A program made the translations under genes and the position numbers. This document shows positions 1-14,664 of a DNA stretch of 64,000 nt, one piece after another. A model generated the notes under the pieces. That model was not told where the DNA came from. It worked only from the letters and a program-made list of their open reading frames with translations, and ran no database searches. Source of the DNA: an uncultured Pseudomonadota bacterium (GTDB lineage Bacteria; Myxococcota_A; Polyangia; Fen-1088); the NCBI GenBank assembly GCA_963778795.1, contig CAVZVU010000006.1:712249-776248 (forward strand). Direction: 5' to 3'. The stretch's first letter is position 1. Each line of letters begins with the position of its first letter.

Positions 1-2
1 GG

Positions 3-578
3 TTGAACGGAAAGCAGGCCGACGATTGCACGCGAGACGAGATCAAGAATGAAGTCTGGGAGCAGCTGAAACGCAGCCTCAACGTGGGTGGCAAGGTGGT
101 GCTGCGCGACGACATGCTGCACTACTGGTTTCTCGACCCGAGCATCGAAGACACCGACCCCGCCGTGCCCGGCTACGAGACCAACGCCGAGCCGCTGCTG
201 GTCAACTACGTCGACACCTGGCGCCTGCGGCCCGAGGCGGTCACCGCGATCCCGAACTTCTTCCTGGCCTCCGATTACGTCCGGACCTACACGGACATCG
301 CCACCATGGAGGGCGCGAACGAAGCGGCGCGCCGAGCGGTCAACGGGGTCCTCCGCGCGTCGGGATCGGCCGCCGAGCCGTGCGGCGTCTGGAAGCTGCA
401 CGAGCCAGAGGTGTTCGCCCCCCTGCGCGCCTACGACCGCGACCGGTTCGTTCGCGGTCTACCCTGGGACGCGAGCGCGTTCGCGCCGGCCACGCAAAGT
501 CAGGCGCTCGCCGATCCGGCAGGGATCGTCCCCGCCGTGGCGGCGCAGAGCGGTCGCGTTCGCATCTTGGAGGGCTGA
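3..578 (+). CDS. FAD-dependent oxidoreductase, C-terminal part (amine oxidase / isoprenoid desaturase-like); 5' end outside window
   Basis: Open from the window edge. C-terminal motif 'NFFLASDYVRTYTDIATMEGANEAARRAVNGVL' is typical of FAD oxidoreductases found beside polyprenyl synthetases. Confidence 0.7.
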   Translation: MNGKQADDCTRDEIKNEVWEQLKRSLNVGGKVVLRDDMLHYWFLDPSIEDTDPAVPGYETNAEPLLVNYVDTWRLRPEAVTAIPNFFLASDYVRTYTDIATMEGANEAARRAVNGVLRASGSAAEPCGVWKLHEPEVFAPLRAYDRDRFVRGLPWDASAFAPATQSQALADPAGIVPAVAAQSGRVRILEG

Positions 579-583
579 GCGGC

Positions 584-1612
584 GTGCCTGCCGTCGACAT
601 CGAGCGCGGGCTCGAGCGCTATCGGTCGATGGTCATGCCGGGGCTGCTGGCCGCGCTCGCCGACCGCGAGCCCCGACGCTACCTGTACGATCTGATCGCC
701 AACCACCTCCGCCGCATGGGAAAGGGGCTGCGGCCGGCGCTGTGCATCGCCACGACCGAGGCCTTCGGCGGCCAGGCGGCTCACGCGGTTCCCTCGGCGG
801 GCGCGCTCGAGATGCTTCACAACGCCTTTCTCATCCACGACGACATCGAGGACGGCAGCGAGAGCCGGCGCGATCGCCCGACCATGTTCGTCGAGCACGG
901 GCTGCCGCTGGCGGTGAACGCGGGCGACGCGATGCAGGCGCTCGCGATCCGGATGCTCAAGGACAACGTTCAGGTCGTCGGGCCCGAGGTCGCCTGGCAA
1001 ATCGTCGGCGAGTTCGACCACCTGCTGATGCGTTCGCTCGAAGGCCAGGCGCTGGAGCTGGGCTGGGTGCGCGAGAACAACTGCGCGGTGACCGAGGAGG
1101 ACTACTTGACGCTGGTCTTGAAGAAGACCTGCTGGTACAGCTTCATCCATCCCTGCCGCCTCGGCGCCCTCATCGCGCGCGGCCCCGACTTTGATCTGTC
1201 GACCTTCGATCGCTTCGGTTTCCTGCTGGGCGCCGCCTTTCAGATCCAGGACGACGTGCTGAACCTGGTCGGCGACCGCCAGAAGTACGGCAAGGAGATC
1301 GGCGGGGATCTGTGGGAGGGGAAGCGGACCCTGATCCTCGCGCATCTCTTCGATCGCCTTGGCGATCGCGATGCCTCCAGGCTGCGCGGCATCCTCGGCA
1401 AGTCGCGCGTCGACAAGTTGCCGGGCGAGATCGACTGGATCTACCAGCAGCTGGGCCGCCACGGCAGCATCGACTTTGCGCGGGCTGCTGCCCGTGAGCT
1501 GGCGGAGGCCACCGTGCGCGAGCTCGAGGTCGCCTATCGCGACGCCCCGAACCAGGGCCCCAAAGCGCTGATCGAGCAGCTGGTCCGCTACACGATTGAA
1601 CGCGAAGTCTAG
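584..1612 (+). CDS. Polyprenyl (trans-isoprenyl) diphosphate synthase
   Basis: GKGLRP motif, first Asp-rich motif 'HNAFLIHDDIED..RRDRPT', 'KKT', second motif 'AFQIQDDVLNL', 'DLWEGKRT'. GTG at 584 is 5 nt after the upstream stop. Confidence 0.9.
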   Translation: MPAVDIERGLERYRSMVMPGLLAALADREPRRYLYDLIANHLRRMGKGLRPALCIATTEAFGGQAAHAVPSAGALEMLHNAFLIHDDIEDGSESRRDRPTMFVEHGLPLAVNAGDAMQALAIRMLKDNVQVVGPEVAWQIVGEFDHLLMRSLEGQALELGWVRENNCAVTEEDYLTLVLKKTCWYSFIHPCRLGALIARGPDFDLSTFDRFGFLLGAAFQIQDDVLNLVGDRQKYGKEIGGDLWEGKRTLILAHLFDRLGDRDASRLRGILGKSRVDKLPGEIDWIYQQLGRHGSIDFARAAARELAEATVRELEVAYRDAPNQGPKALIEQLVRYTIEREV

Positions 1613-4600
1613 CTAGTGTCCTGGCTCTAGCTCGGCGATGCCGGGGCACATCGTGGCGACGAATCGATCGACGCGGACGACCCCCTGGTCGTGGAGCCAT
1701 CGCTCCGCCTGCGCGCGCCGCTCGTCGCGTTCGCGGCCCGGCGGCATCAGACTGGCGAGCGCGTGCCGCGCCACCTCGCGGTAGGCCGCCATCTCGGCGC
1801 GCTCGAAGCCGCCGATCGCCTCCTCGAGCGCCGACCTCGCGGCGGCGTTGTCGCCGCGGGTGCTGGCAATGCCGGCCCGCAACAGCGCGCACCACGGCGG
1901 CGCGGCGGGAACGGGATCCTTGGCCAGCTGGCGCGCCATGCGCTCCGCGTCGGCCAGCAAGCGGCGCGCCGCTTTGTCTTCGGGCGACCCCGGGGCGACT
2001 CGGGTCACGCCCTCCTGCCCCTTCAGGTTCTCGTGGGCCAGCGCGATGGCCGCGCGACCACGCAGGTAGGGCAGGTGCGTCCGGAAGAGCCGCAGCGACA
2101 GCAGGAACGACTTCCGTAGATCGGGCCACTGTTCGAGGATCGCCTTCCAGGCGCGCTCGGGCCGATTCTTGTAGATCTCGCCGTTCACCAGCGCCGTGAG
2201 CAGATACATGTTCTGAGCGCGATAAGCCCCCTCGGGCCAGCCGGCGGCGCCGGCAGTTTGCTGGGCCATGATCTGCGACGCCGCTTCATAGGCTTCGTCC
2301 AGCCGTTCGGCCGCCATCCAGCTCAAGATCCCTTCTCGCAGGGTGTAAGTCTCGAGCGCGCCGTACAGCACATGGCGGCTGCCCATCTCGGCCAGGTAGT
2401 CGCGCTGCAGCCGCCTGACCTCCGCGAGATCGCCGCGCATCGCGAGCGCCTCGACCAAGAAGGCAATGACCGTCGACCGCTCCCAGTACGTGCCCGGGCA
2501 TTCATCGCGAAACAGCCGGAGGGACGCGTGGCACGAAGCGATGGCCTCGGTCAGCCGTCCGTGTGTGAGAGCCACGTTCGCGAGCGCGAGGTGGTGCCAC
2601 GCCTGATCGTACGGGTCCTTGGTGTCCGCGGCGAGCTCCGCGGCGCGCGCCAGCAAGCGCTGGCAGTTGCGATCGAAGAACCGCATCCCCAGGTACGTCT
2701 CCATGGTGGCCTCGAAGGCGAGCGCGCGGCAGACCGTCGAATGATCCCCGTCGTCGAGCGCGTCGAGGAGGTGCATGCCGCGGAAAGCATCCGACAGCGT
2801 CACGTTCACCATCGAGAAGCTCGTCGATACCGCCCACAACACCTCGAGTCGCTCGCGCGCAATGTCCGAGATCAGCGCCTGGCGCCGCGGGCGGGACAGC
2901 TTGCGCTTGCGCAGCAGGAAGAGGATTCGCCGCCAGGTTCCGTAGAAGAGCGCGCGGCCTTGAGAGCGGGGAACGGGAATGCGCAGCTCGTCGAGCACTC
3001 CGCGCATGACCCGCCAGCCCGAGCTGAGGTCGCCGTTCTTGAGGTACTGCTCGGCCGCGAGGCGCCGCAACGTGCGCGGGCGGACGCCCGCCGAGGCCTC
3101 GTTCTCGAGGGCGGCGGCGGCCTCGAGATATTTCTCGGCAGCCACGGCGCCGTGACCGGCGTTGGCGAGCGCTCGGGCGGCCTTTGCGAGCAGATCGCCG
3201 CGCGCGGTCTCGGGCTTCTGCAGCTCGACCGCCTTGGTGTAGAGCTCGGCGGCGCGCTCGAACGCCAGCGCGCGCTCCGCCTGCTCCCCGGCTTGGGCGG
3301 CGAACTCCGCCGCGCGATCGCGGATGCCCGCGCGCAGGAAGTGCTCGAACAGCGCCTCGAGGTCGGTGTCGCCCGCGCTCTCGAGCTGGCGCGCCAGGGC
3401 CTCGTGCAGCGCCCGCGTGTCCTCGGGCGACATGCGGTCGGCGACGACCTGGCGGATGCGGTCGTGGGCGATACCGAGCCGCCGCTCCGCGGGTGAGCCC
3501 CAGTCGACGACGAAGCTGGTCGCCCGCAGGAGTGCGACGATCTCACGGTCGTGGGATTCAATCCCCGCCGCGCGCACCGCCACGGGCGCGCTCACCGGGC
3601 GCCCCGCGATCACGATGGTGTTCAGCAAACGTCGCGCCTCGGGCGGCAGCCGGTCCATCCGCGCGCCGACCAGCTGATCGAGCGTGATTCGCTCGGGAGC
3701 GGGCAGCGTCTCGACCTCGGGGAATAACGACTCGCGCGCCAGCTCGTGAATGAACAGTGGGAATCCCGCCGAATCGCGCGCGATGCTCTCCGCCGCCTGC
3801 GTCGGCGACTCGCTGCCCTGCCGAGACAACAAGCTCTCAGCGAGGCGCCGCGCATCGTCGGGCCCCAGGGGTTCGATGGCGAGTCGTTCGATCTCCAGGG
3901 GCACCGTGTTCTTGCCGGGGCCGCCGCCGAGAAACCCGCCGATCTCACCGGCCTGGCCGCTGTCCGAGCGCAGGCAGCCGATGAGCAGCGCCGACGGCGC
4001 GCCGGGGCGGCCCAGCAGCTCGGCCAGCAGGGCGCCGCTGTCGAGGTCGGACCACTGGACATCGTCGATGAACAGCACCAGCGGCTTCTCACGCGCCAGC
4101 GCGGCCAGGATGTCGCGGAGCGCGGCGAAGGCCCGCCGGCGCTTGTCGGGAAGATCCTCGGGCGGGCTGAACGCTGGATCGACCGGGGCGGCGGCCGCGA
4201 TCTTGTCGAGCACCGGGAACAGATCGGCGAGGAGGAGTACGTCCGGCGTCAGGAGGTTCTTGATGGCCCCCGGCGCCAGGCCCTCGAGGTGCTCGGCGAG
4301 GTGATCGATCAGCGAATCAACCGCTTTGTAGGGAACTGACTCGCGATCGTAGCAACGCCCCTCGAGCACGACGGCGCCCAGGGTGCGGGCCTCGCGCAGG
4401 AAGACGCGCACCAGCGTGCTCTTTCCGACCCCTGACGGCCCCGAGGCCAGCACGATGGTGGGCGAGCCGGACCGGCTGCGGGCGAGCGCGGCGCGCATGC
4501 GGCCGAGCTCGTCGACCCGATTCACGAACACGTAGTCGCTGCGCAGCGACCGCAGGGCGTGCGGTTGACGACGCGGCGGCTCCTGCCCCAGCCGCGCGAG

Positions 4601-5488
4601 GATCTCCGCTGCCGAAGGACGCCGCGCCGGCTCGACGTTCAGGAGATCAACGCAGAGATTGTCGAGGAACGCCGGGGTGCTCTCCGCCAGCAACGACGGC
4701 CGGATTCCGAATAGCTCCTGCTGGGGGGCATTCATCCCCCGCCGGACCTGGGGGAACGTCCCGGTCAGGGCCTGGTACAGCATGACACCCAGGCTGTACC
4801 AGTCGGTGGCCGGGGTCGGCGCTGGCCTCCCGGGCGCGAACAGCTCGGGCGCCATGTAGTAGAGGGTGCCGCGCAGCGGGCTGGCCGATAGGGCGGGTGC
4901 CTGATCGGTCACGATTTCGGTCACGAGCCCGAAGTCGACCAGCACCACGCGGCCTTCCAGATCCACCAATACATTCGACGGCTTGATGTCGCGATGGAGC
5001 TTGCCGGCCGCGTGCAAGGCGTCGACCCCCCGCACCAGCTGAGCGGTTGCGTCCTGCAGCCGCCCGATGTCGACGAAGCTTCCCGCAAGCAGCGCGCCCG
5101 GCTCGGTCGGTGCGGCCCACGGCGTCCCCAGGGGCGACGCGGTCGTGAAGGTCTGGACCGATGTGGAGGTGCCGAGGCCGCTGACGTAGTCGAGGAAGTT
5201 CAACCCACGAATCAGCTCCATGGTCATGAACCAGACCCCGTCGACCGCGTTCATTTCATACAGGGACACGAGGTTGCGGTGGACCACGCCGGTAAGGGCG
5301 CGAAACTCCTGCTTGAACAGCAGCAAGGAGTGCGAGCTCAGAGAGTGGAGCGTCTTGAGCGCGATCTCCTCCTGCAGCGTGCGGTCGTACGCGTGATAGA
5401 CGATGCCCATGCCCCCCTGGCCCAGGGGACGAAGGAGGCTGTACCTCTCCGTACCCATGAACGAGCCCAGTTTCAGGGTTGGCTTCAC
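1613..5488 (-). CDS. Ser/Thr protein kinase fused to an AAA_16/STAND-like P-loop ATPase and a helical (TPR-like) C-terminus
   Basis: 'LGQGGMGIVY', 'IALKTL', 'HRDIKPSN', 'DFGL', 'YMAPE'; Walker A 'GPSGVGKS', Walker B 'LFIDDVQWSD'. Start could be 5458 instead. Confidence 0.9.
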   Translation of the reverse strand: MKPTLKLGSFMGTERYSLLRPLGQGGMGIVYHAYDRTLQEEIALKTLHSLSSHSLLLFKQEFRALTGVVHRNLVSLYEMNAVDGVWFMTMELIRGLNFLDYVSGLGTSTSVQTFTTASPLGTPWAAPTEPGALLAGSFVDIGRLQDATAQLVRGVDALHAAGKLHRDIKPSNVLVDLEGRVVLVDFGLVTEIVTDQAPALSASPLRGTLYYMAPELFAPGRPAPTPATDWYSLGVMLYQALTGTFPQVRRGMNAPQQELFGIRPSLLAESTPAFLDNLCVDLLNVEPARRPSAAEILARLGQEPPRRQPHALRSLRSDYVFVNRVDELGRMRAALARSRSGSPTIVLASGPSGVGKSTLVRVFLREARTLGAVVLEGRCYDRESVPYKAVDSLIDHLAEHLEGLAPGAIKNLLTPDVLLLADLFPVLDKIAAAAPVDPAFSPPEDLPDKRRRAFAALRDILAALAREKPLVLFIDDVQWSDLDSGALLAELLGRPGAPSALLIGCLRSDSGQAGEIGGFLGGGPGKNTVPLEIERLAIEPLGPDDARRLAESLLSRQGSESPTQAAESIARDSAGFPLFIHELARESLFPEVETLPAPERITLDQLVGARMDRLPPEARRLLNTIVIAGRPVSAPVAVRAAGIESHDREIVALLRATSFVVDWGSPAERRLGIAHDRIRQVVADRMSPEDTRALHEALARQLESAGDTDLEALFEHFLRAGIRDRAAEFAAQAGEQAERALAFERAAELYTKAVELQKPETARGDLLAKAARALANAGHGAVAAEKYLEAAAALENEASAGVRPRTLRRLAAEQYLKNGDLSSGWRVMRGVLDELRIPVPRSQGRALFYGTWRRILFLLRKRKLSRPRRQALISDIARERLEVLWAVSTSFSMVNVTLSDAFRGMHLLDALDDGDHSTVCRALAFEATMETYLGMRFFDRNCQRLLARAAELAADTKDPYDQAWHHLALANVALTHGRLTEAIASCHASLRLFRDECPGTYWERSTVIAFLVEALAMRGDLAEVRRLQRDYLAEMGSRHVLYGALETYTLREGILSWMAAERLDEAYEAASQIMAQQTAGAAGWPEGAYRAQNMYLLTALVNGEIYKNRPERAWKAILEQWPDLRKSFLLSLRLFRTHLPYLRGRAAIALAHENLKGQEGVTRVAPGSPEDKAARRLLADAERMARQLAKDPVPAAPPWCALLRAGIASTRGDNAAARSALEEAIGGFERAEMAAYREVARHALASLMPPGRERDERRAQAERWLHDQGVVRVDRFVATMCPGIAELEPGH

Positions 5489-5676
5489 GCGCTCGGTCTC
5501 TGCTGGAACTTATACCGCGCAACCCCTACCGGAGATCAACGGCGCGCGTCCGTGGCTGGGATCACGGGCCGGCGCGAGCGATTCTCGCGGGGGGACGACT
5601 TTGTGGATATCTGAGTTGAGCCCGCCCGGCAGAGCGTCTGATAGTCTCCGGCTCGTTAGGAAGGTCGGGAGTTGCG

Positions 5677-5919
5677 ATGAGCCCTCTCAGCTCGGTGAAC
5701 GCGTGGCTCTCGGGTTTCTTCGCGTGCGCCGCGATCCACTACGCGGTCCACTGGTGGCTCTCGCGCCACGAGCGGATCTTCCTTCGTGCCTTCAGCGCGC
5801 TCGTCTCGGGCGTGCTGGGCTTCCTCGCCCAGCCCTTCGACGATCGCGAGCTCCTCGACGGCCTCGCGCGCGCCCTGGCCGCGCGCGGCGCTGCGGAGCG
5901 GGCGGTGGCCCAGTCGTAG
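5677..5919 (+). pseudogene. Probable deletion chimera: membrane-sensor N-terminus joined to a receiver-domain C-terminus
   Basis: One hydrophobic helix 'LSGFFACAAIHYAVHWW', then abruptly 'GFLAQPFDDRELLDGLARAL', resembling the REC beta5-alpha5 segment with the conserved K of KPF replaced by Q. Confidence 0.45.
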
Positions 5920-5980
5920 TGCCGTCTCGAAGGCGATCCCGGGGCGAGGTTGAGTGTTAAAGTGCGCGGCGGTGGCGTCG

Positions 5981-7411
5981 ATGAGCGACTCTCCGAGGGT
6001 AGCCGTGGACTCGAGGCACGCCGTTCAGTTCTATGAGGACGACGGATTCTTGTGCGAGATCCTGACGGACTTCTCGCGCGAGGGAATCGAGAACGGCGAA
6101 TCGGTCATTCTGGTCGCGACCGCTCCCCACCGGAGGGAGGTCGAGCGCCGGCTGACCGAGCGCGGGATCGATGTCGGGGGTCCCCAGGAATCGGGACAGC
6201 TCGTCCTGCTCGATGCGCGTCAGGCGCTTTCTTCGTTCATGGTCGAGGGGAAGCCGGACACGGACCGGTTTCTGTCGAGCATCCGCGGACTGCTGGCGAC
6301 GGCGACTCTCGACGGGCGGCGTGCCGCTCGACTCTACGGCGAGATGGTCGATCTGCTGTGGCGCGACGGCAATCACGGCGCCGCGATTCAGCTGGAGGAG
6401 ACCTGGAATGCCTCCGCGAAGACACATTCGGCCCGGGTCCTCTGTGGGTACGCGATGGACAACTTCGTCAAAGAGACTCTGACGGCCGAGTTCGCGCGGG
6501 TTTGCGAGGCGCACACGGAGGTACGACCAGCCGAGGGCTTCCGGACGGCGCACGAGCATGGCGCGCAGATGCGCGAGGTAGCGCGGCTGCAGCAACGCGC
6601 GCGGGCGCTGGAAAGCGAGGTGACACGGCGCCATGGTCTGGAGGTGGCGCTCCGTCAGGCGCTGGAGCGCGAGCAGGTGGCCCATCAGGCGAAGGACCAG
6701 TTCCTCGCGATGCTCGGACACGAGCTGCGGAATCCGTTGGCCGTGATTTCACTCACGCTGGAATTGATGGGACTGCGCCAGGACGATCGGGTCGTCGAGG
6801 AGCGCCGGACGATCGATCGGCAATTGAAGCTCCTCGTCCGAATGGTCGACGATCTGTTGGACGGCGCTCGGCTCAACTACGACAAAGTCGAGCTGAACAA
6901 GGAACCGTTGCAGCTGTCGGAAATCGTCGCCGGCGCGCTGGAAATCGCGAGCCCGATCATCGCGAGGAAGCGGCAAGCGATCAGCGTCTCCGTGGCGACC
7001 GACGGATTGGTCATCGAGGGAGATCGGCACCGCCTCGCGCAGGCGATTGGCAACCTGGTGACGAACGCGGTCAAGTACACGCCCGAAGGAGGGACCGTCC
7101 GAATCACTGGCGCGACCGCGGACGGCAAAGTCATTCTGAGCATCGAAGACAACGGTGTGGGCATCGCCCCGGATTTCCTCCCGCGCGTGTTCGAGGCCTT
7201 GGTTCAAGGCGATCGAAGCCTCGACCGCAGCGAAGGCGGCCTGGGGATGGGGCTGGCCGTCACGCGGAAGCTCATCGAGCTTCACGGTGGAACGATCGTG
7301 GCGCGCAGCGACGGCCCCGGAATGGGCAGCACGTTCACGTTGTGCCTGCCGCACATCGCGAGCCTGGCCCGCGACGACGTCCAGGCGAGCCTCGGATGCC
7401 CGCCGGCCTGA
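5981..7411 (+). CDS. MEDS-domain sensor histidine kinase
   Basis: 'HAVQFYEDD', 'RLYGEMVDLLW', 'LEETWN', 'VLCGY' (MEDS); H-box 'GHELRNPL', N-box 'NLVTNAVKYT', 'DNGVGI', 'GLGMGL'. Confidence 0.9.
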   Translation: MSDSPRVAVDSRHAVQFYEDDGFLCEILTDFSREGIENGESVILVATAPHRREVERRLTERGIDVGGPQESGQLVLLDARQALSSFMVEGKPDTDRFLSSIRGLLATATLDGRRAARLYGEMVDLLWRDGNHGAAIQLEETWNASAKTHSARVLCGYAMDNFVKETLTAEFARVCEAHTEVRPAEGFRTAHEHGAQMREVARLQQRARALESEVTRRHGLEVALRQALEREQVAHQAKDQFLAMLGHELRNPLAVISLTLELMGLRQDDRVVEERRTIDRQLKLLVRMVDDLLDGARLNYDKVELNKEPLQLSEIVAGALEIASPIIARKRQAISVSVATDGLVIEGDRHRLAQAIGNLVTNAVKYTPEGGTVRITGATADGKVILSIEDNGVGIAPDFLPRVFEALVQGDRSLDRSEGGLGMGLAVTRKLIELHGGTIVARSDGPGMGSTFTLCLPHIASLARDDVQASLGCPPA

Positions 7412-7415
7412 TGCG

Positions 7416-7880
7416 ATGAGGAGACCGAGCGCCCCACAGGTCGAAAGGGCCAAGAGCCTGCTTTCGACCGAGGGGGAGTGGGAGGCAAGCGCGGAGGCGT
7501 GCGCGGCGGCGGCCGGACGGGTCTACGACAAGCTCGCGGCTCAGCTGGTCCCGCTCTTGGGTGGCGCTGGCGTTCAAGCGATGTTCGTGCGCAGCGCGAA
7601 GCTGGCGCGGGCCGAGCTCCCTCTCTACGCCGAGCTCGTCCCCGCGATTGAAGGGTCGGGCGAGGGCGCGACGGGACTCAGTGGGTACTTGCAGACGCTC
7701 GAGCCGACCGCCGCCACCCAGGCCGCCACCGCCCTGTTCGGTACCTTCCTCGATCTCATCATTACTTTCATCGGAGACCGGTTGACCGTCCAGGCACTGC
7801 GGGGTGCTTGGCCCAAAATTGACGAGACGCCAGACGAGACGCCAGACGAGACGGCATCTACGGGGAGCCCAAAGAAATGA
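7416..7880 (+). CDS. Uncharacterised helical protein coupled to the KaiC-like gene
   Basis: Starts 4 nt after the HK stop; its stop overlaps the next start (ATGA at 7877-7880); high-GC codon usage. Confidence 0.7.
   Translation: MRRPSAPQVERAKSLLSTEGEWEASAEACAAAAGRVYDKLAAQLVPLLGGAGVQAMFVRSAKLARAELPLYAELVPAIEGSGEGATGLSGYLQTLEPTAATQAATALFGTFLDLIITFIGDRLTVQALRGAWPKIDETPDETPDETASTGSPKK
7821..7856 (+). repeat. 12-bp tandem repeat GACGAGACGCCA (about 3 copies, DETP-DETP-DETA)
   Basis: gacgagacgcca gacgagacgcca gacgagacggca read directly. Confidence 0.85.
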
Positions 7881-9355
7881 GTGACCGCGTTCCGATTCGC
7901 AAACTGTCCTCCGGCGTGCCCGGCCTCGACGAGGTGCTCGGCGGCGGCATCCCGGAGTTCTCGTTCAATCTGGTTGCCGGCGGCCCGGGGTGCGGCAAGA
8001 CGACGCTCGGTCACCAGATCATGTTCGCGAACGCGAGCCCCGAGCGAAAGGCCGTGTACTTCAGCATCATCGGGGAACCGCCCATCAAGATGCTGCGTTA
8101 CCAGCAACAGTACGACTTCTTCGACGCCGCCAAGATCGGCGACGGCTCGGTGCGCTTCATCCACCTCGGACAGCAGGCGCTCGAGGGGGGGATGGGGAAG
8201 GTGCTGGAGGCGGTGGTGCAAGAGCTCGAGCGATCGAACCCGGAGATCGTCGTCGTGGACTCCTTCCGGGCGATGGTGCGCACCACGCTGGCCGGACCGG
8301 CCGGCGAGGTACAGGTGACCGACTTCATGCAGCGCCTCGCGCTCGCGCTGACCAGCCACCAGGCGACGACGTTTCTCCTCGGGGAGTACGCCGAGGGCGA
8401 GCGCGACAGCGCGGTGTTCACGGTGGCCGACGGGCTGTTCTGGCTGTACCAGGCGATCGATCGCAACTCCGTCGTGCGCAAGGTGCAGGTGATGAAGGTG
8501 CGCGGCCAGGGGCAGATCCCCGGGCTCCACACCGCCCGCATCACGGACGCAGGCTTGAGCGTGTTCCCCCGCCTTCCGAGGCCGGAGGAGGTCGTCACCG
8601 ACCAGCCGCTCAAGCACCGGCTGAAGACCGGGGTGTTGGGGCTCGACAAGCTGATGGAGGGCGGCATCCCGCAAGGATATTCGGTGCTGGTCGCCGGTCC
8701 CTCCGGATCCGGCAAGACCGTCCTGTCGAATCAGTTCATCGTCGAGGGCATCAAGCGGGGCGAAAGCGCGATCGTGGCCGTGTACGAGAAGCGACCGAAC
8801 GAGTACCTACAGACGACCCCGCACGGCGAGGCGTTGCGGAGGCTGGTCCGGCAGGGGAAGCTGGAGGTCCTCTACATGCGCCCGCTGGATCTCTCGATCG
8901 ACGAGACCGTGATGCAGCTTCGCGAAGCGGTGAAGCGGACCGGCGCCAAGCGGGCAGTGATCGATTCGCTCTCGGGGCTGGAGCTCGCTCTCGCGCCAGC
9001 CTTCCGGGAGGACTCGAGGGAGTCGCTTTACCGCATGGTAGGAGCGTTGACGGGCCTGGGCGTCACGGTGATGGCCACCATCGAGCTGTCTGACTCCTAC
9101 GTCGATCTCCGATTCAGCCCCCAGGGGATCGCCTTTCTCGCGGACGCGATCATCATCCAGCGCTACGTCGAGATCGACGGGGAACTGCGGCGCGCGATGG
9201 CGGTCGTCAAGGTGCGGGCCAGCCAGCACAGCAAGGATATTCGAGAGTACGAGATCACCTCCGACGGCGGGATCGCCGTCGGCAAGGCGCTGAAGGGCTA
9301 CCGGGGCTTGCTGACCGGGACTCCGTCGAGGGACGGAAAGCGGCACAAGAGATGA
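7877..9355 (+). CDS. KaiC-like duplicated RecA-superfamily ATPase
   Basis: Two homologous halves: 'SSGVPGLDEVLGGG..GGPGCGKT..VVVDS..KVRG' and 'KTGVLGLDKLMEGG..GPSGSGKT..AVIDS..KVRA'. Confidence 0.9.
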   Translation: MSDRVPIRKLSSGVPGLDEVLGGGIPEFSFNLVAGGPGCGKTTLGHQIMFANASPERKAVYFSIIGEPPIKMLRYQQQYDFFDAAKIGDGSVRFIHLGQQALEGGMGKVLEAVVQELERSNPEIVVVDSFRAMVRTTLAGPAGEVQVTDFMQRLALALTSHQATTFLLGEYAEGERDSAVFTVADGLFWLYQAIDRNSVVRKVQVMKVRGQGQIPGLHTARITDAGLSVFPRLPRPEEVVTDQPLKHRLKTGVLGLDKLMEGGIPQGYSVLVAGPSGSGKTVLSNQFIVEGIKRGESAIVAVYEKRPNEYLQTTPHGEALRRLVRQGKLEVLYMRPLDLSIDETVMQLREAVKRTGAKRAVIDSLSGLELALAPAFREDSRESLYRMVGALTGLGVTVMATIELSDSYVDLRFSPQGIAFLADAIIIQRYVEIDGELRRAMAVVKVRASQHSKDIREYEITSDGGIAVGKALKGYRGLLTGTPSRDGKRHKR

Positions 9356-9359
9356 GGCG

Positions 9360-10670
9360 ATGATGACGGAGCCGGACTTCACCTGCTTCGAGGTGGTCGG
9401 GGCGCTCGTCGTCGTGCTCGAGCCCGACGGCCAGATTGTCCACTGGAACCGCCGCTGTTCCGAGTTGACCGGCTACTCGCTCGAGGAGGTTCGTGGCCGG
9501 AGGTTCTGGGACTTCCTCCTGGTGCCGGAAGAGATCGAGCCGGTCAGGGCCGCCTTCGCCGCGCTGACGTTCGAGCATCCAAGCCCCTATACGAACTACT
9601 GGGTCGCCAAGAGCGGTGAGCGACGTTGGATCGCCTGGTCGCACACTTTGATGACCCACCCTGACGGAGGCGTCCGGTACGTCATCAAGACGGGAATCGA
9701 TCGAACCGAAAGCAAGCGGGCCTCCGATGACCTGGTCGCCTCCCGAGCCATGCTTGCCGCGCGCGCTGTCGAGTCCACGCGGTTGTACGAAGACGCCAGT
9801 CGGCTCACGAACGACCTTCGCGAGGCGAACCAGCACCTGGTCCGCGCGACGATCCAGGCGCAAGAGCTGACCGAGAAGGTGGAGGCGGCGCTGGCGCGCT
9901 CGGAGGAGAGCGAGCGGCAGCTGCGTGCGACAGCCGAGTTCCGGGAGATGTTCATTGGTGTACTGGGTCACGACCTGCGCAACCCGCTCGGGACGATCGC
10001 CATGCTCGCCGAGGTGGTCCGTCACTGCCGCGTCGACGACGAGGCTCGGCGTTGCATCTCGAGGATCGTCGCCAGCACCCAGCGCATGAGTCGGATGATC
10101 CATCAGCTGCTCGACTTCACGCGCGCGCGGCTCGGGGGAGGCTTCCCGCTCGAACCGAAGCCCACGAGCTTGCGTGACGTGTGCCAGAGCGTCGTCGAGG
10201 AATTCGGGGCGAGCATGCACCTGGATCTTGAAGGTGACCTGACCGGCACCTGGGACCCGGATCGCCTGGCTGAAGCTCTCTCCAACATCGCGGGCAACGC
10301 CGTCGAGCACGCGCGACCCGGAACCGAAGTCGTCGTCAGGGCACACCCCCAAGGAACCGATGTCGTCGTCGAGATCAGCAATCGGGGAGATCCCATTCCC
10401 CCGGATCTGCTCCCGTTCATCTTCGAGCCCTTCCGTCGAGGACAGCACGAGAGCTCGACGACCGGGAACCTCGGACTCGGCCTCTACATCGCCAATCAGA
10501 TCGTGCTCACCAGTGGTGGCACGCTTGACGCGCGGTCTGCCGACGGCACGACGACCTTCACGATGCGGCTGCCCCGCTCCCGAGACGCCGGCTCAGGCGG
10601 ACCCGAGCGATCGGATCCCGCTACCAAGAGTTCGCCTTCCCACGCCGACCCGACGCCGAGCGGACCGTAG
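9360..10670 (+). CDS. PAS-domain sensor histidine kinase
   Basis: PAS 'DGQIVHWNRRCSELTGYSLEEVRGR'; H-box 'GHDLRNPL'; 'NIAGNAVEH'; 'GLGLYI'. Confidence 0.9.
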   Translation: MMTEPDFTCFEVVGALVVVLEPDGQIVHWNRRCSELTGYSLEEVRGRRFWDFLLVPEEIEPVRAAFAALTFEHPSPYTNYWVAKSGERRWIAWSHTLMTHPDGGVRYVIKTGIDRTESKRASDDLVASRAMLAARAVESTRLYEDASRLTNDLREANQHLVRATIQAQELTEKVEAALARSEESERQLRATAEFREMFIGVLGHDLRNPLGTIAMLAEVVRHCRVDDEARRCISRIVASTQRMSRMIHQLLDFTRARLGGGFPLEPKPTSLRDVCQSVVEEFGASMHLDLEGDLTGTWDPDRLAEALSNIAGNAVEHARPGTEVVVRAHPQGTDVVVEISNRGDPIPPDLLPFIFEPFRRGQHESSTTGNLGLGLYIANQIVLTSGGTLDARSADGTTTFTMRLPRSRDAGSGGPERSDPATKSSPSHADPTPSGP

Positions 10671-10700
10671 CGCACCCCCGGTCGCGCGGTTCTCCAACGT

Positions 10701-10757
10701 TCAACCAGATGGTTGACTTAGGCGCGGGCGGTGGCGCATATTCAACCTGATGGTTGA
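10701..10757 (+). promoter_or_regulatory. Two ArsR-type operator palindromes with a likely sigma70 promoter
   Basis: TCAACCAGATGGTTGA (10701-10716) and TCAACCTGATGGTTGA (10742-10757, overlapping the ATG). TTGACT (10713-10718) and CATATT (10737-10742) are 18 bp apart. Confidence 0.75.
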
Positions 10758-11094
10758 CATAGCGGAGATGAACGAGGTGTTCCACGCGCTCAGTCACGAT
10801 GCGCGGCGCGCGATGCTGACCCGCCTCGCGTCCGTTGACCTCACCGTAGGGCAGCTTGCCGAGCCGTTCTCCATGTCGCTCGAGGCCGCCTCCAAGCATA
10901 TCCGGGTCCTGGAACGGGCCGGCCTGGTTCGCCGCACCGTGGAGGGTCGCCGTCACGTCTGCCGGCTGGAAGCTCGGCCGCTCGCTTCGGCCGCGGCCTG
11001 GCTGCGTTTCTACGAGCGCTTCTGGAACGCGCGTCTCGACGCACTCGCGGACCTGTTCCAACCGAGCCGGCCAACGAAAAGGAGAAGCCGATGA
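10750..11094 (+). CDS. ArsR/SmtB-family transcriptional regulator
   Basis: 'VFHALSHDARRAML..LTVGQLAEPFSMSLEAASKHIRVLERAGLV' winged helix. Confidence 0.9.
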   Translation: MVDIAEMNEVFHALSHDARRAMLTRLASVDLTVGQLAEPFSMSLEAASKHIRVLERAGLVRRTVEGRRHVCRLEARPLASAAAWLRFYERFWNARLDALADLFQPSRPTKRRSR

Positions 11095-11600
11095 CGCCGA
11101 AGACGACGTTTCCCGCCGTGAGATTGCAGCGCACCATTCCGGCACCACCATCCGAGGTGTACCGGGCCTGGCTCGACCCCGCGCTGCTACGGCAATGGAT
11201 GGCCCCCGGCGGATTCGACGTGAAACGCGCCGAGGTCGACGGCCGCGTGGGCGGTCATCTTCGCATCTGGCATGGGGACGCCGGCTCGGACGTGGGCGGC
11301 TTCGAGTGCGAGATCGTCGAGCTCGTCCCCCACGAGCGTCTTGTCTTCCGGTGGGGGTTCGTCGGCCCTGAAAGAGCCGCTGGGCCCGTGTATGACTCGC
11401 TGCTGACGATCACGCTGCAGGCTGCGAAGGGAAATGCGACGACCCTGACCTTGCTGCACCAGCGCCTGGACGATCTCGCCGCCGCGATGCCGCACGTCGC
11501 TGACAAGGTGGAGGTTGGCTGGGCGCTGGTCCTCGAGAAGCTCGCCCTTTCGTTCGGAGTCCATCGACGTCAGGCGAATGTGTCAGGCCAGAACACTTGA
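11091..11600 (+). CDS. SRPBCC (AHSA1/START-like) protein
   Basis: 'RTIPAPPSEVYRAWLDP..LRQW', 'PHERLVFRW', C-terminal 'GW'; overlaps the ArsR stop. Confidence 0.85.
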   Translation: MTPKTTFPAVRLQRTIPAPPSEVYRAWLDPALLRQWMAPGGFDVKRAEVDGRVGGHLRIWHGDAGSDVGGFECEIVELVPHERLVFRWGFVGPERAAGPVYDSLLTITLQAAKGNATTLTLLHQRLDDLAAAMPHVADKVEVGWALVLEKLALSFGVHRRQANVSGQNT

Positions 11601-11619
11601 ACTGCCGGAGGTCGAAATC

Positions 11620-12267
11620 ATGCGCAAGGTGATCGTTTTCGAGTTCATGAGCCTCGACGGTGTTGTGCAGGCGCCCGCCTATGTTGACGAGGACCCGAGC
11701 GGCGGGTTCAAACACGGAGGGTGGCATCCGCGGTACCTGGAGGAGCGTTCGATGAAGTGGGTCGTCGAGAACGTGAGTGGGGCGGGCGGCTTCCTGTTCG
11801 GCCGCCGCACTTACGAAGTGTTCGCGGCGCACTGGCCGACCGCGTCCCAGGAGGAGCAGGCGCTCGCCCAGCCGTTGAACACCCTCCCGAAGTACGTCGC
11901 GTCGACAACGCTGAAGGCGCCGCTGGTCTGGCGGAATTCGCGGTTGCTCGACAGCCCAGTTGCAGAGTCGGTGGCCAACTTGCGGCGCGAAGACGGCGGG
12001 AATCTCCTGGTGATCGGCAGCACCCAGCTCGCGGCCGCGCTCCTGGCTCACGATCTGGTCGACGAGCTCCGGCTGATGATCGATCCCGTGCTCCTGGGCG
12101 GCGGCAAGCGCTTCTTTCGCGATGACGGAGCGTGCCTGCGGCTCGCCCTCTCGACGAGCGAGGCGACCCCGACCGGCGCGATCCTGGCGACGTACGTCCG
12201 TTCCAGCGCCGATGCGCCGGCGGGAGCGAGCGCGTTGCCCCTTCCCCGACCGCCGCCCGATCGTTGA
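11620..12267 (+). CDS. Dihydrofolate reductase / RibD C-terminal family protein
   Basis: 'MSLDGVVQAP', 'LFGRRTYE', 'PKYVASTTL', 'IGSTQL', 'DLVDELRLMIDPVLLGGGKRFF'. Confidence 0.9.
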   Translation: MRKVIVFEFMSLDGVVQAPAYVDEDPSGGFKHGGWHPRYLEERSMKWVVENVSGAGGFLFGRRTYEVFAAHWPTASQEEQALAQPLNTLPKYVASTTLKAPLVWRNSRLLDSPVAESVANLRREDGGNLLVIGSTQLAAALLAHDLVDELRLMIDPVLLGGGKRFFRDDGACLRLALSTSEATPTGAILATYVRSSADAPAGASALPLPRPPPDR

Positions 12268-12302
12268 GATCTCTGATCGCTCGGGCTGGGCGATCAGAGA
12301 TC
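12268..12302. terminator. Hairpin between convergent genes
   Basis: GATCTCTGATCGC-N9-GCGATCAGAGATC, a perfect 13-bp stem. No U-tract, so terminator function is tentative. Confidence 0.55.
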
Positions 12303-14664
12303 GAGGCGCGTGACCCGGACCGCGATTGCCGTCGTGGTGGTCCACGGCGGCAGGGTCTGCAGCAGCGCTTTCACGGCCTCGTCGCGGGCGGGGGCGCGCG
12401 CGATCGCGCGCAGCTCGACGGGCACCGGCGCGCGGCCGTGCACGGTGATGGACAGCTCGGCGCCGTCGGCGGCCAGCCCCTCGAGGTGAACCACGCGCTG
12501 GCCCCACGCCTGCATGGTCGCCTCGGGCGGCGCGCCCAGCGACCAGCCGACAAGGCGCGCGGCGGGGAGGGCGAGGCGCATCTGAGCGCCCGGCGCCGTC
12601 ACGCGCAGGCGCAGCTCGCGGCGGTCGGAGACGACGTCATACGCGTCGGCGATCACCTCGATGCGCGGAGGGTCCAGGTCCTCCGGCGGCGGCGCCGGCC
12701 GCTCGTGCGAGAACGGCGGCAGCCAGGTCTCGAAATGCGGCCATCCCGCGCGGGCGGGCGTGAATCCGGGGACCGAGGAGAGGACCGACTCCAGCCCGAG
12801 CGCGTCGCCCGACCGCAGCAGCAGCGCGCTCCTCGGAACGCCCGACGACTCTTCGGCTGACGATTCTTCGGCGACCTGGGCCACCCGCAGCCGCTTCGGT
12901 CGCTCGGCCGTATACGGGAACCGCACGGCCGTCGCCACGAGCCCGATGACGCCCACGACCACGCACGCGAGGGATGCGCGCCCGAATCCGCCCACGCCGT
13001 GGACGACCGCGGCCGCCAGCACCGCAACGGCGACGGCCACGCCACCGGCCAGCAGAGCGACGGGCGCGTCGAACGGCTGCGGCGCCGGGATCGTGCCGGT
13101 GATGGGCAGGAAATAGCTGAGGAACAGCACGCCGAGCTCGACGGTCACGACGGCGCCAGGGACCACGCTGAGCAGCGCCAGAATGGACCGCGCCCGTGGA
13201 AACAGCAGCGACGCGATCATGCCGGCCGCGGTCGCCCAGACCCAGTGAAGCGGGATGTACCCGACGCCCACCCCGCTGATCGTCGCGGCCGCCAGCCACG
13301 CCGACCAGAAGATCAGGCCGCCGGCCCAAGCTGCGAAGGCGTGCCGTTCGACGTCCGTCCTCCGCAGCGCGCGGCGGCGCCAGGCCGCGTGCACGCCGAA
13401 CACAGCCGCCAGCGCGGGCGCTGCGAACGCCGGCACGACCAGCGCCGGGGCGCTGAACCAGCCGTGCGGGCGGCCGAGCCCGCGGCCCAGCAGCAGGCCC
13501 GCCGCGACGGCGGCGCCGATGCCGGCGACGACCGCGAGCAGGGTCCACGCGAGCGCACCCAGCGCGGACCGCGCCGAGATCTCGCGATCGCCGCGCGCCT
13601 GCGGCCAGCGCGATCGCCGCCAGGACCAGCGCCGCGATGCCCAGCGCCCGACCGGTCTGCGCTTTGTAGGCCACCATCGTCGCGCCGACGAGGTCGTAGT
13701 AGACGACCGGTGCCCGGTCGGCGGCGGTGCGGGCGACCGGGAGCGGTCCGCTCGCCAGCGCGCGGACCACCGCAACCGCGGTGTCGCCCATGTGCTGCAG
13801 GCTCCCGCGCTCGAGCCGCGCCGGGCGGTCGAGCGCGTCGTGGTACGCCCACCCATCGCCGGTCATCGCCACGTCCAGGCCGACGAGGCCCGCTTCATGA
13901 AACGGCGTGAAGTCCCCGTTGTGAGGCAAAAGACCGCTGGCCACGAGATCCTGGCCCACGACGTTGCCGACGGGAATCGGCGCCACCCGCGCGTAGGTCT
14001 CGGCGAGCCATGGGTTGCCTGCGCCGAACAGCCCCGCGCGCCCGCCGGGCAACGCTTCCAGATAAAGATACGCGCGGACATCGCGGGCCCACCGGTGCTT
14101 CAGGAATCCGGCCGCGCCGAACAGGCCCGCCTCCTCGCCGCCGTTCAGGTTCACCACGATCGTGTGCGCGAGCGGCGCCTCGCGCGCCAACACGCGGAGC
14201 GTCTCGACGATGGCCGCCACGCCGGCGGCGTCGTCGGCCGCTCCGACCGAATCCAGCAGGGTGTCGAAGTGCGCGTCCAGGAGGATCGCCTCGGGCGAGC
14301 GGCCCGGCAGGCGCGCCACCACGTTGAGTGTCCGGTAGACGAACGCCGGCAGCACGCTCGACCGATACACCTCGGTGCCCGAGACGTCCTGGATCTCGAC
14401 CTCGAGCCCGGGGATCCGCCGCAGCTCGCTGGCCAGCAACTCGGCCGCCCGCGCGTGCGCCGCCGTTCCGTTGACGCGCTCGCCGAGATCGACGAGCCGC
14501 TGCACGACCTCGCGGGCCCGTCCCTCCGAGAAGCGAGCCGCGGGCGCGTCGAGAGGCAGCGGCGCCGGCGGCCGCAGGGCCCACCACGCCGCGCCGAGGA
14601 CGGCGGCCGCCAGGGCCGCTATCGTGCTCCAGACGGCTGCTGTCTGCGATGGACGGATTCGCAC
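12294..14664 (-). CDS. M28 metallopeptidase with multi-TM C-terminus (ERMP1-like); one frameshift near 13590
   Basis: 'DAHFDT..GAADDAAGV', 'GGEEAGLFG', 'YHDALD' in ORF 12637..14907; the TM region continues in ORF 12294..13856 ('REISARSALGALAW'). Confidence 0.8.

Follow-up and report, generated by a model that had tools for sequence, protein, structure and literature searches.

Do closely spaced genes for two histidine kinases, a small helical protein and a KaiC-like ATPase encode one signalling device, or do they belong to separate units that merely share a transcript? This question is raised by positions 5981-10670 of the window, by which we mean the whole 64,000-nucleotide (nt) stretch of contig CAVZVU010000006.1 analysed here. 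The locus comprises four genes:

5981-7411, + strand: HK1, a cytoplasmic histidine kinase (HK) of 476 amino acids (aa) with MEDS, HisKA and HATPase_c domains; stop codon TGA at 7409-7411 (open reading frame (ORF) listing, Pfam)
7416-7880, + strand: small all-helical protein of 154 aa, starting 4 nt past HK1
7877-9355, + strand: two-domain KaiC-like ATPase of 492 aa, whose ATG shares the bases ATGA with the TGA of the small gene
9360-10670, + strand: HK2, a kinase of 436 aa with PAS, HisKA and HATPase_c domains, 4 nt past the KaiC-like gene

The junctions across these co-oriented genes measure +4, -4 (the ATGA) and +4 nt, and the ORF listing and direct reading agree here with the initial annotation, which had described four genes with gaps of at most 4 nt and one ATGA overlap. 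That annotation went on to treat all four as one module in which the ATPase scaffolds two kinases. We favour a different reading, to which we assign a probability of roughly 0.6: a stand-alone MEDS kinase (Unit 1) precedes a cassette of small protein, KaiC-like ATPase and kinase (Unit 2, 7416-10670), and within this cassette the small protein would regulate a phosphosite-free ring that in turn would control the kinase. The four genes are then two evolutionarily independent units that have been joined into what is probably one transcription unit. We infer every physical contact in this reading, and likewise which component controls which.

Gene neighbourhoods support Unit 2. Two search routes were followed. 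A search with the small protein yielded 34 genomic loci; a scan for the ATPase motifs yielded 550 genomic stretches or more, from which the best 80 were analysed (79 with enough upstream sequence). Along the first route, a two-domain KaiC-like gene lies immediately 3' on the same strand in 34/34 loci; along the second, the hidden Markov model of the small family matches directly 5' of the ATPase in 78 of the 79 usable loci among the best 80 of at least 550. In the sole miss, L118, the ATPase match is spread over about 3.4 kb, and the position test may have broken down there. At 81 of 110 loci the stop codon of the small gene and the start of the ATPase gene share 4 nt, and at 106 the gap is at most 10 nt. 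The best 80 stretches come from Myxococcota, Acidobacteriota, Planctomycetota, Nitrospirota, Armatimonadota, Gemmatimonadota, Chloroflexota, Actinomycetota, Alphaproteobacteria and Eisenbacteria. Co-occurrence of the 154-aa protein with kaiC-like genes was the neighbourhood check that had been proposed at the outset, and these counts bear it out: the small protein appears, on its genomic company, to be an obligate partner of non-clock KaiC proteins.

The third gene is conserved less strictly. Among the loci found through the small protein, 27 of the 31 next genes downstream encode HATPase_c, 22 of them with HisKA and 5 with HisKA_3, and 5 carry a receiver. HK2-family kinases come after the ATPase gene at 44 of 70 loci; a sample of 20 from the others contains 7-8 with a kinase of the HisKA_3 or HWE type. 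About three quarters of loci have a downstream histidine kinase. Two distant family members (36-39% local identity, tblastn) stand in the same triad; in one distant cassette the kinase spans only 244-264 aa and consists of the dimerization and histidine phosphotransfer (DHp) and catalytic ATP-binding (CA) domains, without a sensor domain. Outside the triad the genes differ from locus to locus, and receivers make up 5 of 48 downstream and 6 of 58 upstream neighbours. From these counts we take the small protein and the ATPase as the invariant core and the kinase as the usual third gene. The cassette itself is patchily distributed: among relatives 4 of 41 have it, within the genus 2 of 5 species, and across the phylum 2 of 301 sampled genomes. 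Cultured carriers include Corallococcus sp. CA053C, C. sicarius CA040B and Polyangium fumosum DSM 14668 (L017-L019).

Some cassettes depart from the simple arrangement. Some genomes contain tandem cassettes, in which a second pair of small and KaiC genes is preceded immediately by a KaiC fragment and an HK2-type kinase; other genomes have two consecutive HK2-type kinase genes behind one ATPase (L010:55-135, L012:1154-2520, L008:9317-10899). In one Polyangia metagenome-assembled genome (L003:3028-3465), only fragments of about 150 residues are left of the KaiC-like gene that is flanked by the small gene and the PAS kinase; this is either a decayed cassette or an assembly error.

What, then, is the place of HK1? 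By its sequence it is an ordinary kinase, with Pfam scores of 97 bits for MEDS (PF14417; cut-off 29.8), 53 for HisKA and 96 for HATPase_c, an H box reading GHELRNPL and a canonical G1 box reading EDNGVGI. An AlphaFold2 (AF2) model of HK1 residues 1-192, built with 40 homologues, reaches a predicted local distance difference test (pLDDT) score of 88 and a predicted template modelling (pTM) score of 0.85, and its top 50 Foldseek matches are all KaiC or the KaiC-like FlaH (E 3e-5 to 4e-4, query TM-score (TMq) at most 0.63). By sequence the likeness of MEDS to KaiC is weak (hhalign E 0.0035, probability 9%). The MEDS domain has no Walker A motif (GxxGxGKT), and 'QFYEDDG' stands at the position of the P-loop. 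The structure comparison settles the matter in favour of MEDS as a dead KaiC fold, and PMC5847659, citing Makarova et al. 2017, classes MEDS as an inactivated KaiC domain (iKaiC).

HK1 is nevertheless independent of the cassette. The MEDS domain is absent from all 34 + 80 other cassette loci, and the genes that encode the nearest HK1 homologues (MEDS-domain identity 73% and 69%) are monocistronic and do not have a KaiC cassette in their vicinity. A full-length search of the relatives returned dozens of paralogous kinases and no full-length orthologue, and MEDS kinases are numerous in these genomes. The nearest cassette (L035; small protein 86% and ATPase about 90% identical) has an unrelated hybrid kinase upstream, across a 170-nt gap, which is only 28% identical to the HK1 core. 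A genome of the same genus shares with window positions 1-14000 a sole DNA match, 7414-10576 at 78% identity, which runs from the small gene through HK2: it begins 2 nt before the small gene and stops inside HK2. The cassette of that genome has its own upstream region and lies beside a divergent gene. The idea of a conserved four-gene module with two scaffolded kinases is not supported: the MEDS kinase is lacking at every other locus examined, its nearest homologues are solitary, homology sets in at 7414, and the kinase of L035 is unrelated. HK1 is, to judge from these comparisons, a lineage-specific upstream neighbour that is probably co-transcribed with the cassette and lies outside its conserved part.

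All four proteins might even so form one device in this particular genome, with the ring and a small-protein adaptor coupling two kinases; HK1 would dock via its MEDS domain, which could pack against the ring, assemble together with it or attach to the small protein, and HK2 would dock via its PAS domain. The 4-nt junctions speak for this in so far as they imply that HK1 and the cassette are co-transcribed and translationally coupled, as do the KaiC-like structure of the MEDS domain (seen with AF2 and Foldseek, and listed in PMC5847659) and the fact that another kinase or receiver gene is sometimes found upstream of cassettes (6 of 58 upstream genes; L035). We nonetheless hold such a device to be unlikely, given that no MEDS domain accompanies any other cassette, that the closest HK1 homologues are solitary, that the same-genus cassette follows an upstream region of its own with DNA homology starting at 7414, and that MEDS kinases are so numerous that adjacency by chance or rearrangement is plausible. 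The KaiC fold of a sensor without a P-loop keeps a functional recruitment of HK1 in this lineage alive at low odds.

The small protein has no match in Pfam, NCBIfam or PADLOC, Pfam matches none of 48 diverse family members, and the family profile matches none of the PDB sequences at E<=10. An AF2 model from a 36-sequence alignment is all-helical with six helices (pLDDT 87, pTM 0.79), and a Foldseek search with it against the PDB gives nothing below E=1 and neither KaiA nor KaiB. The family is nonetheless large: a word-indexed search yields 115 clusters, none of which has a name or a Pfam domain (the NCBI-sourced members are unnamed as well), and with a profile search the number of representative proteins is 3,759 at E<=1e-3, 1,425 of those at E<=1e-10. 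Conserved residues of the small protein include E19, R35, K39, R59-S60, G120-x-R122 and W132-P133. Comparison of the N-terminal with the C-terminal half by hhalign (E 3e-4, probability 39%, 26 columns) gives a weak hint of an internal repeat or duplication. One further feature lies within the gene:

7821-7853, + strand: 12-nt tandem repeat, GACGAGACGCCA x2.8 (Tandem Repeats Finder)

The repeat (score 66, 100% matches) encodes a (DETP)n C-terminal tail, which in the alignment is unique to this copy and missing from its relatives; this lineage-specific expansion accounts for a length of 154 aa as against about 140 aa in relatives. No description of the family was found in the searchable literature, Pfam, NCBIfam or PDB. 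The locus had been put forward as an undescribed system, and this appears to hold for the small protein; it does not hold for the pairing of a KaiB-less KaiC protein with a kinase, which is known from Pseudomonas (bioRxiv 10.1101/2022.01.26.477890). The new element here is therefore the small partner family, KaiB-less KaiC-kinase modules being already known.

A fusion protein from one lineage offers a clue to the function of the small domain. A protein of 321 aa, identical on three independent metagenome contigs, joins a receiver (REC) domain at residues 14-126 to the small domain at residues 178-319; at these loci (L053:935-1900, L054:325-1290, L055:354-1319) two further REC genes come before it and a KaiC-like gene follows with a 1-nt overlap. 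The fusion indicates that a phospho-relay directed at the ATPase can use the small domain as its output, and its position ahead of a KaiC-like gene suggests a signalling role for the small protein. On a single contig (L056:487-1119) the small domain (residues 2-123) is fused to a GerE/LuxR helix-turn-helix (HTH) domain; the next gene there, of which the contig holds the first 67 aa, is not KaiC-like over that start, which may be an exception to the pairing or an assembly artefact.

These fusions also bear on the idea that the small protein and the ATPase make up a DNA-transaction, defence or mobile-element module of RecA/RadA type that merely landed near kinases. The patchy distribution would suit such a module, as it suggests horizontal transfer (4/41 relatives, 2/301 phylum genomes), and so would weak P-loop matches to ATPase models of defence systems. 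Yet a co-oriented, closely spaced kinase comes next in about 75% of loci, the small domain is fused to REC and HTH domains, and no integrase or defence genes are conserved near the cassettes; we regard a non-signalling function as highly improbable. The defence-system reading was rejected, the matches being to generic P-loops only.

The second protein of the core is a KaiC-family double ATPase of the hexamer type that falls outside the clock KaiC equivalog. PF06745 matches it twice (218 bits against a cut-off of 26.6; Pfam, 492-aa protein) and its top match among PDB sequences is KaiC (8zn5, E 5.9e-57, phmmer), while the cut-offs of the NCBIfam KaiC equivalogs are not reached (NF006799, 209.8 < 408; TIGR02655, 146.9 < 546). 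It is the only two-domain KaiC in the assembly. Walker A motifs lie at residues 35-42 (GGPGCGKT) and 274-281 (GPSGSGKT), the Walker B motifs read VVVDSF and VIDSLS, and the Arg fingers are R209 and R447. Each domain has a single catalytic Glu, E67 in CI (GEP) and E304 in CII (YEK), where KaiC has EE pairs. In the alignment to 8zn5 the KaiC motif 'ISTITD' faces 'IAFLAD', which replaces S431 with A419 and T432 with F420. The motifs were followed through 32 aligned orthologues from related loci plus six diverse ones: both Walker A and Walker B motifs, the catalytic Glu and the Arg-finger motifs (KxRGQ; KxRxSxHxK) are invariant, and the subfamily consensus at the phosphosite is IAFLTD, with A and F at the two positions throughout. 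The invariance of the ATPase motifs argues that the protein is probably catalytically competent and active.

The same residues set it apart from the cyanobacterial clock. Judged from its alignment, the ATPase is unable to go through the Ser/Thr phosphorylation cycle known from clock KaiC. Its chain ends 9 residues past the motif LLTGTP (residues 478-483), and since the C-terminus comes just after GLLTGTP there is no A-loop tail. KaiB (PF07689) and KaiA (PF07688) have no match across the whole assembly, which is estimated to be 78.6% complete, and a Synechococcus control was positive both times. The initial annotation had noted from the letters that both P-loops and the Arg fingers are kept, that the S431/T432 site is absent, that the catalytic Glu motifs are single rather than double, and that a canonical clock is unlikely without kaiA and kaiB. 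All of this is confirmed by the located motifs and the alignment, and the case against a canonical clock now rests on the lack of KaiA and KaiB together with the lack of Ser/Thr phosphosites and of an A-loop tail. With regard to completeness, the assembly comprises 8.5 Mb in 7 contigs and the sister genome G301 of the same genus 8.6 Mb in 6 contigs; that both of these near-contiguous assemblies score only 78% suggests a marker set that fits the lineage poorly rather than missing sequence.

A ring without phosphosites could still keep time in another way, as an hourglass in which slow ATP hydrolysis, gated by the small protein as a stand-in for KaiA or KaiB, gauges elapsed time or culture age and reports it via the kinase. 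Cyanobacterial KaiC-family ATPases are, as textbook knowledge has it, slow timers, and both ATPase sites are conserved here. Phosphorylation of Pseudomonas KaiC homologues is also reported to follow culture age and not circadian cues, and PMC11832031 describes a rhythmic fruiting pattern in a myxobacterium with kaiC homologues. We find a timer quite improbable, however, for a protein that has no phosphosites to store phase and no KaiB, with a small partner unlike KaiA and KaiB in both fold and sequence, and with a distribution that is patchy even inside the genus.

The kinase that closes the cassette, HK2, is by its conservation the likely output kinase. Over the catalytic core it shares 59-79% identity with the kinases that follow the ATPase gene elsewhere, and this core is kept in most myxobacterial loci (tblastn). 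Nothing is unusual about the H, N, F and G2 boxes, whereas the G1 box is atypical, reading N-x-G-x-P in place of the canonical DxGxG; at 10374-10400 (residues 339-347) the residues are I-S-N-R-G-D-P-I-P, so that Pro replaces the second Gly.

Four observations weigh against the two-unit reading set out above. The 4-nt junction between HK1 and the small gene leaves no room for an intergenic promoter, and HK1 may therefore be functionally wired in at this locus. The HK1 sensor itself adopts a KaiC fold in the AF2 model and its Foldseek matches. In about a quarter of loci no kinase lies immediately downstream, which means that the kinase is not obligatory. Finally, the G1 box carries Asn instead of the adenine-contacting Asp in 22/22 cassette kinases aligned, and the chemistry of the HK2 family may consequently be unusual.

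With these points in mind, we propose the following course of events for Unit 2. Translational coupling would produce the small protein in a fixed ratio with the ATPase, to which it would bind and whose ATPase or conformational state it would set. The complex of ATPase and partner could then dock onto the downstream kinase, at the PAS domain and/or at the conserved helical linker that precedes the H-box, and thereby switch the balance between autokinase and phosphatase activity, the signal leaving through a response regulator encoded elsewhere. In this way the ATPase and its partner would do the cytoplasmic sensing, probably of energy or nucleotide state, on behalf of a kinase that could dispense with a sensor domain of its own.

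We speculate further that the small protein is the first known member of a third class of KaiC-family regulators, one with no relation to KaiA or KaiB. It would be the general and hitherto overlooked partner in a KaiC lineage that is phosphosite-free and ATPase-only and occurs in about ten bacterial phyla, and it would form the port of signal input into the ring (compare the receiver fusions) and make the ring a nucleotide-state switch for histidine kinases. In this genome the cassette would in addition have been wired behind a kinase whose sensor is a dead KaiC fold, which makes a mixed KaiC/MEDS assembly conceivable. This wider proposal is tentative, and we consider it possible rather than likely. 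KaiC homologues are common outside cyanobacteria and their functions and binding partners are largely obscure; the cassette supplies a concrete and testable partner, from a large unannotated family with no solved-fold match that is nearly always translationally coupled to a single KaiC subfamily, together with a defined output in the form of a conserved kinase. If the small protein does bind and regulate the ring, this would explain KaiC-type signalling without KaiA, KaiB or phosphosites and would constitute a new input module for two-component signalling. The locus also shows that tight spacing may unite unrelated units, which calls for caution in operon-based inference.

The surroundings of the four genes contain these features:

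1613-5488, - strand: Ser/Thr protein kinase of 1,291 aa that also has an AAA_16 (STAND-type) ATPase and a long tail of helical repeats, divergent from HK1
5489-5980, no strand: intergenic region of about 490 bp that separates HK1 from the divergent Ser/Thr kinase gene
10713-10742, + strand: sigma-70-like site, the only one of the region in the sigma-70 scan, preceding the ArsR-family gene
10750-11094, + strand: ArsR-family HTH gene downstream of HK2, overlapping the AHSA1/SRPBCC gene by 4 nt
11091-11600, + strand: AHSA1/SRPBCC gene, the second of the ArsR/AHSA1 pair

Because no gap inside the four genes exceeds 4 nt, the region 5489-5980 is the sole room for a promoter serving all of them; the sigma-70 scan gave no internal site within the four genes, and neither terminators nor RNA elements were found at the locus. 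The ArsR/AHSA1 pair, with its own sigma-70-like site and its 4-nt overlap, is a separate two-gene unit, and the flanking genes on both sides, Ser/Thr kinase-AAA_16 upstream and ArsR/AHSA1 downstream, are unrelated to the four. A scan of the flanking genes, with the kinase at 1613-5488 on the upstream side and the ArsR/AHSA1 pair up to 11600 on the downstream side, shows no receiver-domain gene, in line with the earlier remark that no response regulator accompanies the module. An open frame of 99 aa at 5620-5919 (+), with its end reading '...QPFDDRELLDGLARAL' / '...GFLAQPFDDRELLDGLARALAARG', was considered as a decayed receiver gene and rejected, as it has no Pfam match; its end recalls the last strand-helix of a receiver domain, which could be a remnant or chance.

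How does this cassette compare with known KaiC systems? The closest parallel is found in environmental Pseudomonas, which carry KaiB-less modules of KaiC-like proteins and histidine kinases (Terrettaz et al., bioRxiv 10.1101/2022.01.26.477890). The KaiC homologues of these bacteria bind their cognate kinase, the PAS domain being sufficient for binding, and their 'group II' KaiC has no Ser/Thr phosphosites and is linked only to a kinase (bioRxiv 10.1101/2022.01.26.477890). The locus described here likewise combines a two-domain KaiC homologue, unaccompanied by KaiA or KaiB, with a PAS histidine kinase in a predicted operon: the KaiC homologue is co-oriented with HK2, lies 4 nt from it and belongs to an assembly without KaiB. 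Groups I and III differ in having phosphosites and an adjacent single-domain response regulator, neither of which is present at this locus, and no small helical partner is described for the Pseudomonas modules, whereas the present cassette has one.

With the cyanobacterial KaiABC/SasA system the cassette shares a double RecA-like KaiC ATPase (PDB E 1e-46 to 6e-57) beside a HisKA-type kinase. It differs from KaiABC in the lack of KaiA and KaiB, in Ala and Phe for S431 and T432, in a single Glu per domain and in the missing A-loop/C-terminal tail; moreover, SasA has a KaiB-like N-domain where HK2 has a PAS domain. Among myxobacteria, the survey PMC11832031 counts 1-7 kaiC homologues per genome, about 50 of the homologues without phosphosites, no kaiA and only rare kaiB, and states that their function is unstudied. 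The ATPase described here belongs to this population; the passages of the survey that were consulted do not mention an upstream small protein or a conserved kinase. In archaea, KaiC-family ATPases act as hubs of signal transduction beside two-component proteins (Makarova, Galperin and Koonin 2017, as cited in PMC5847659); the partner domains there are different ones, and a homologue of the small helical family is not reported. The classification of MEDS as iKaiC, finally, agrees with the AF2 model of HK1.

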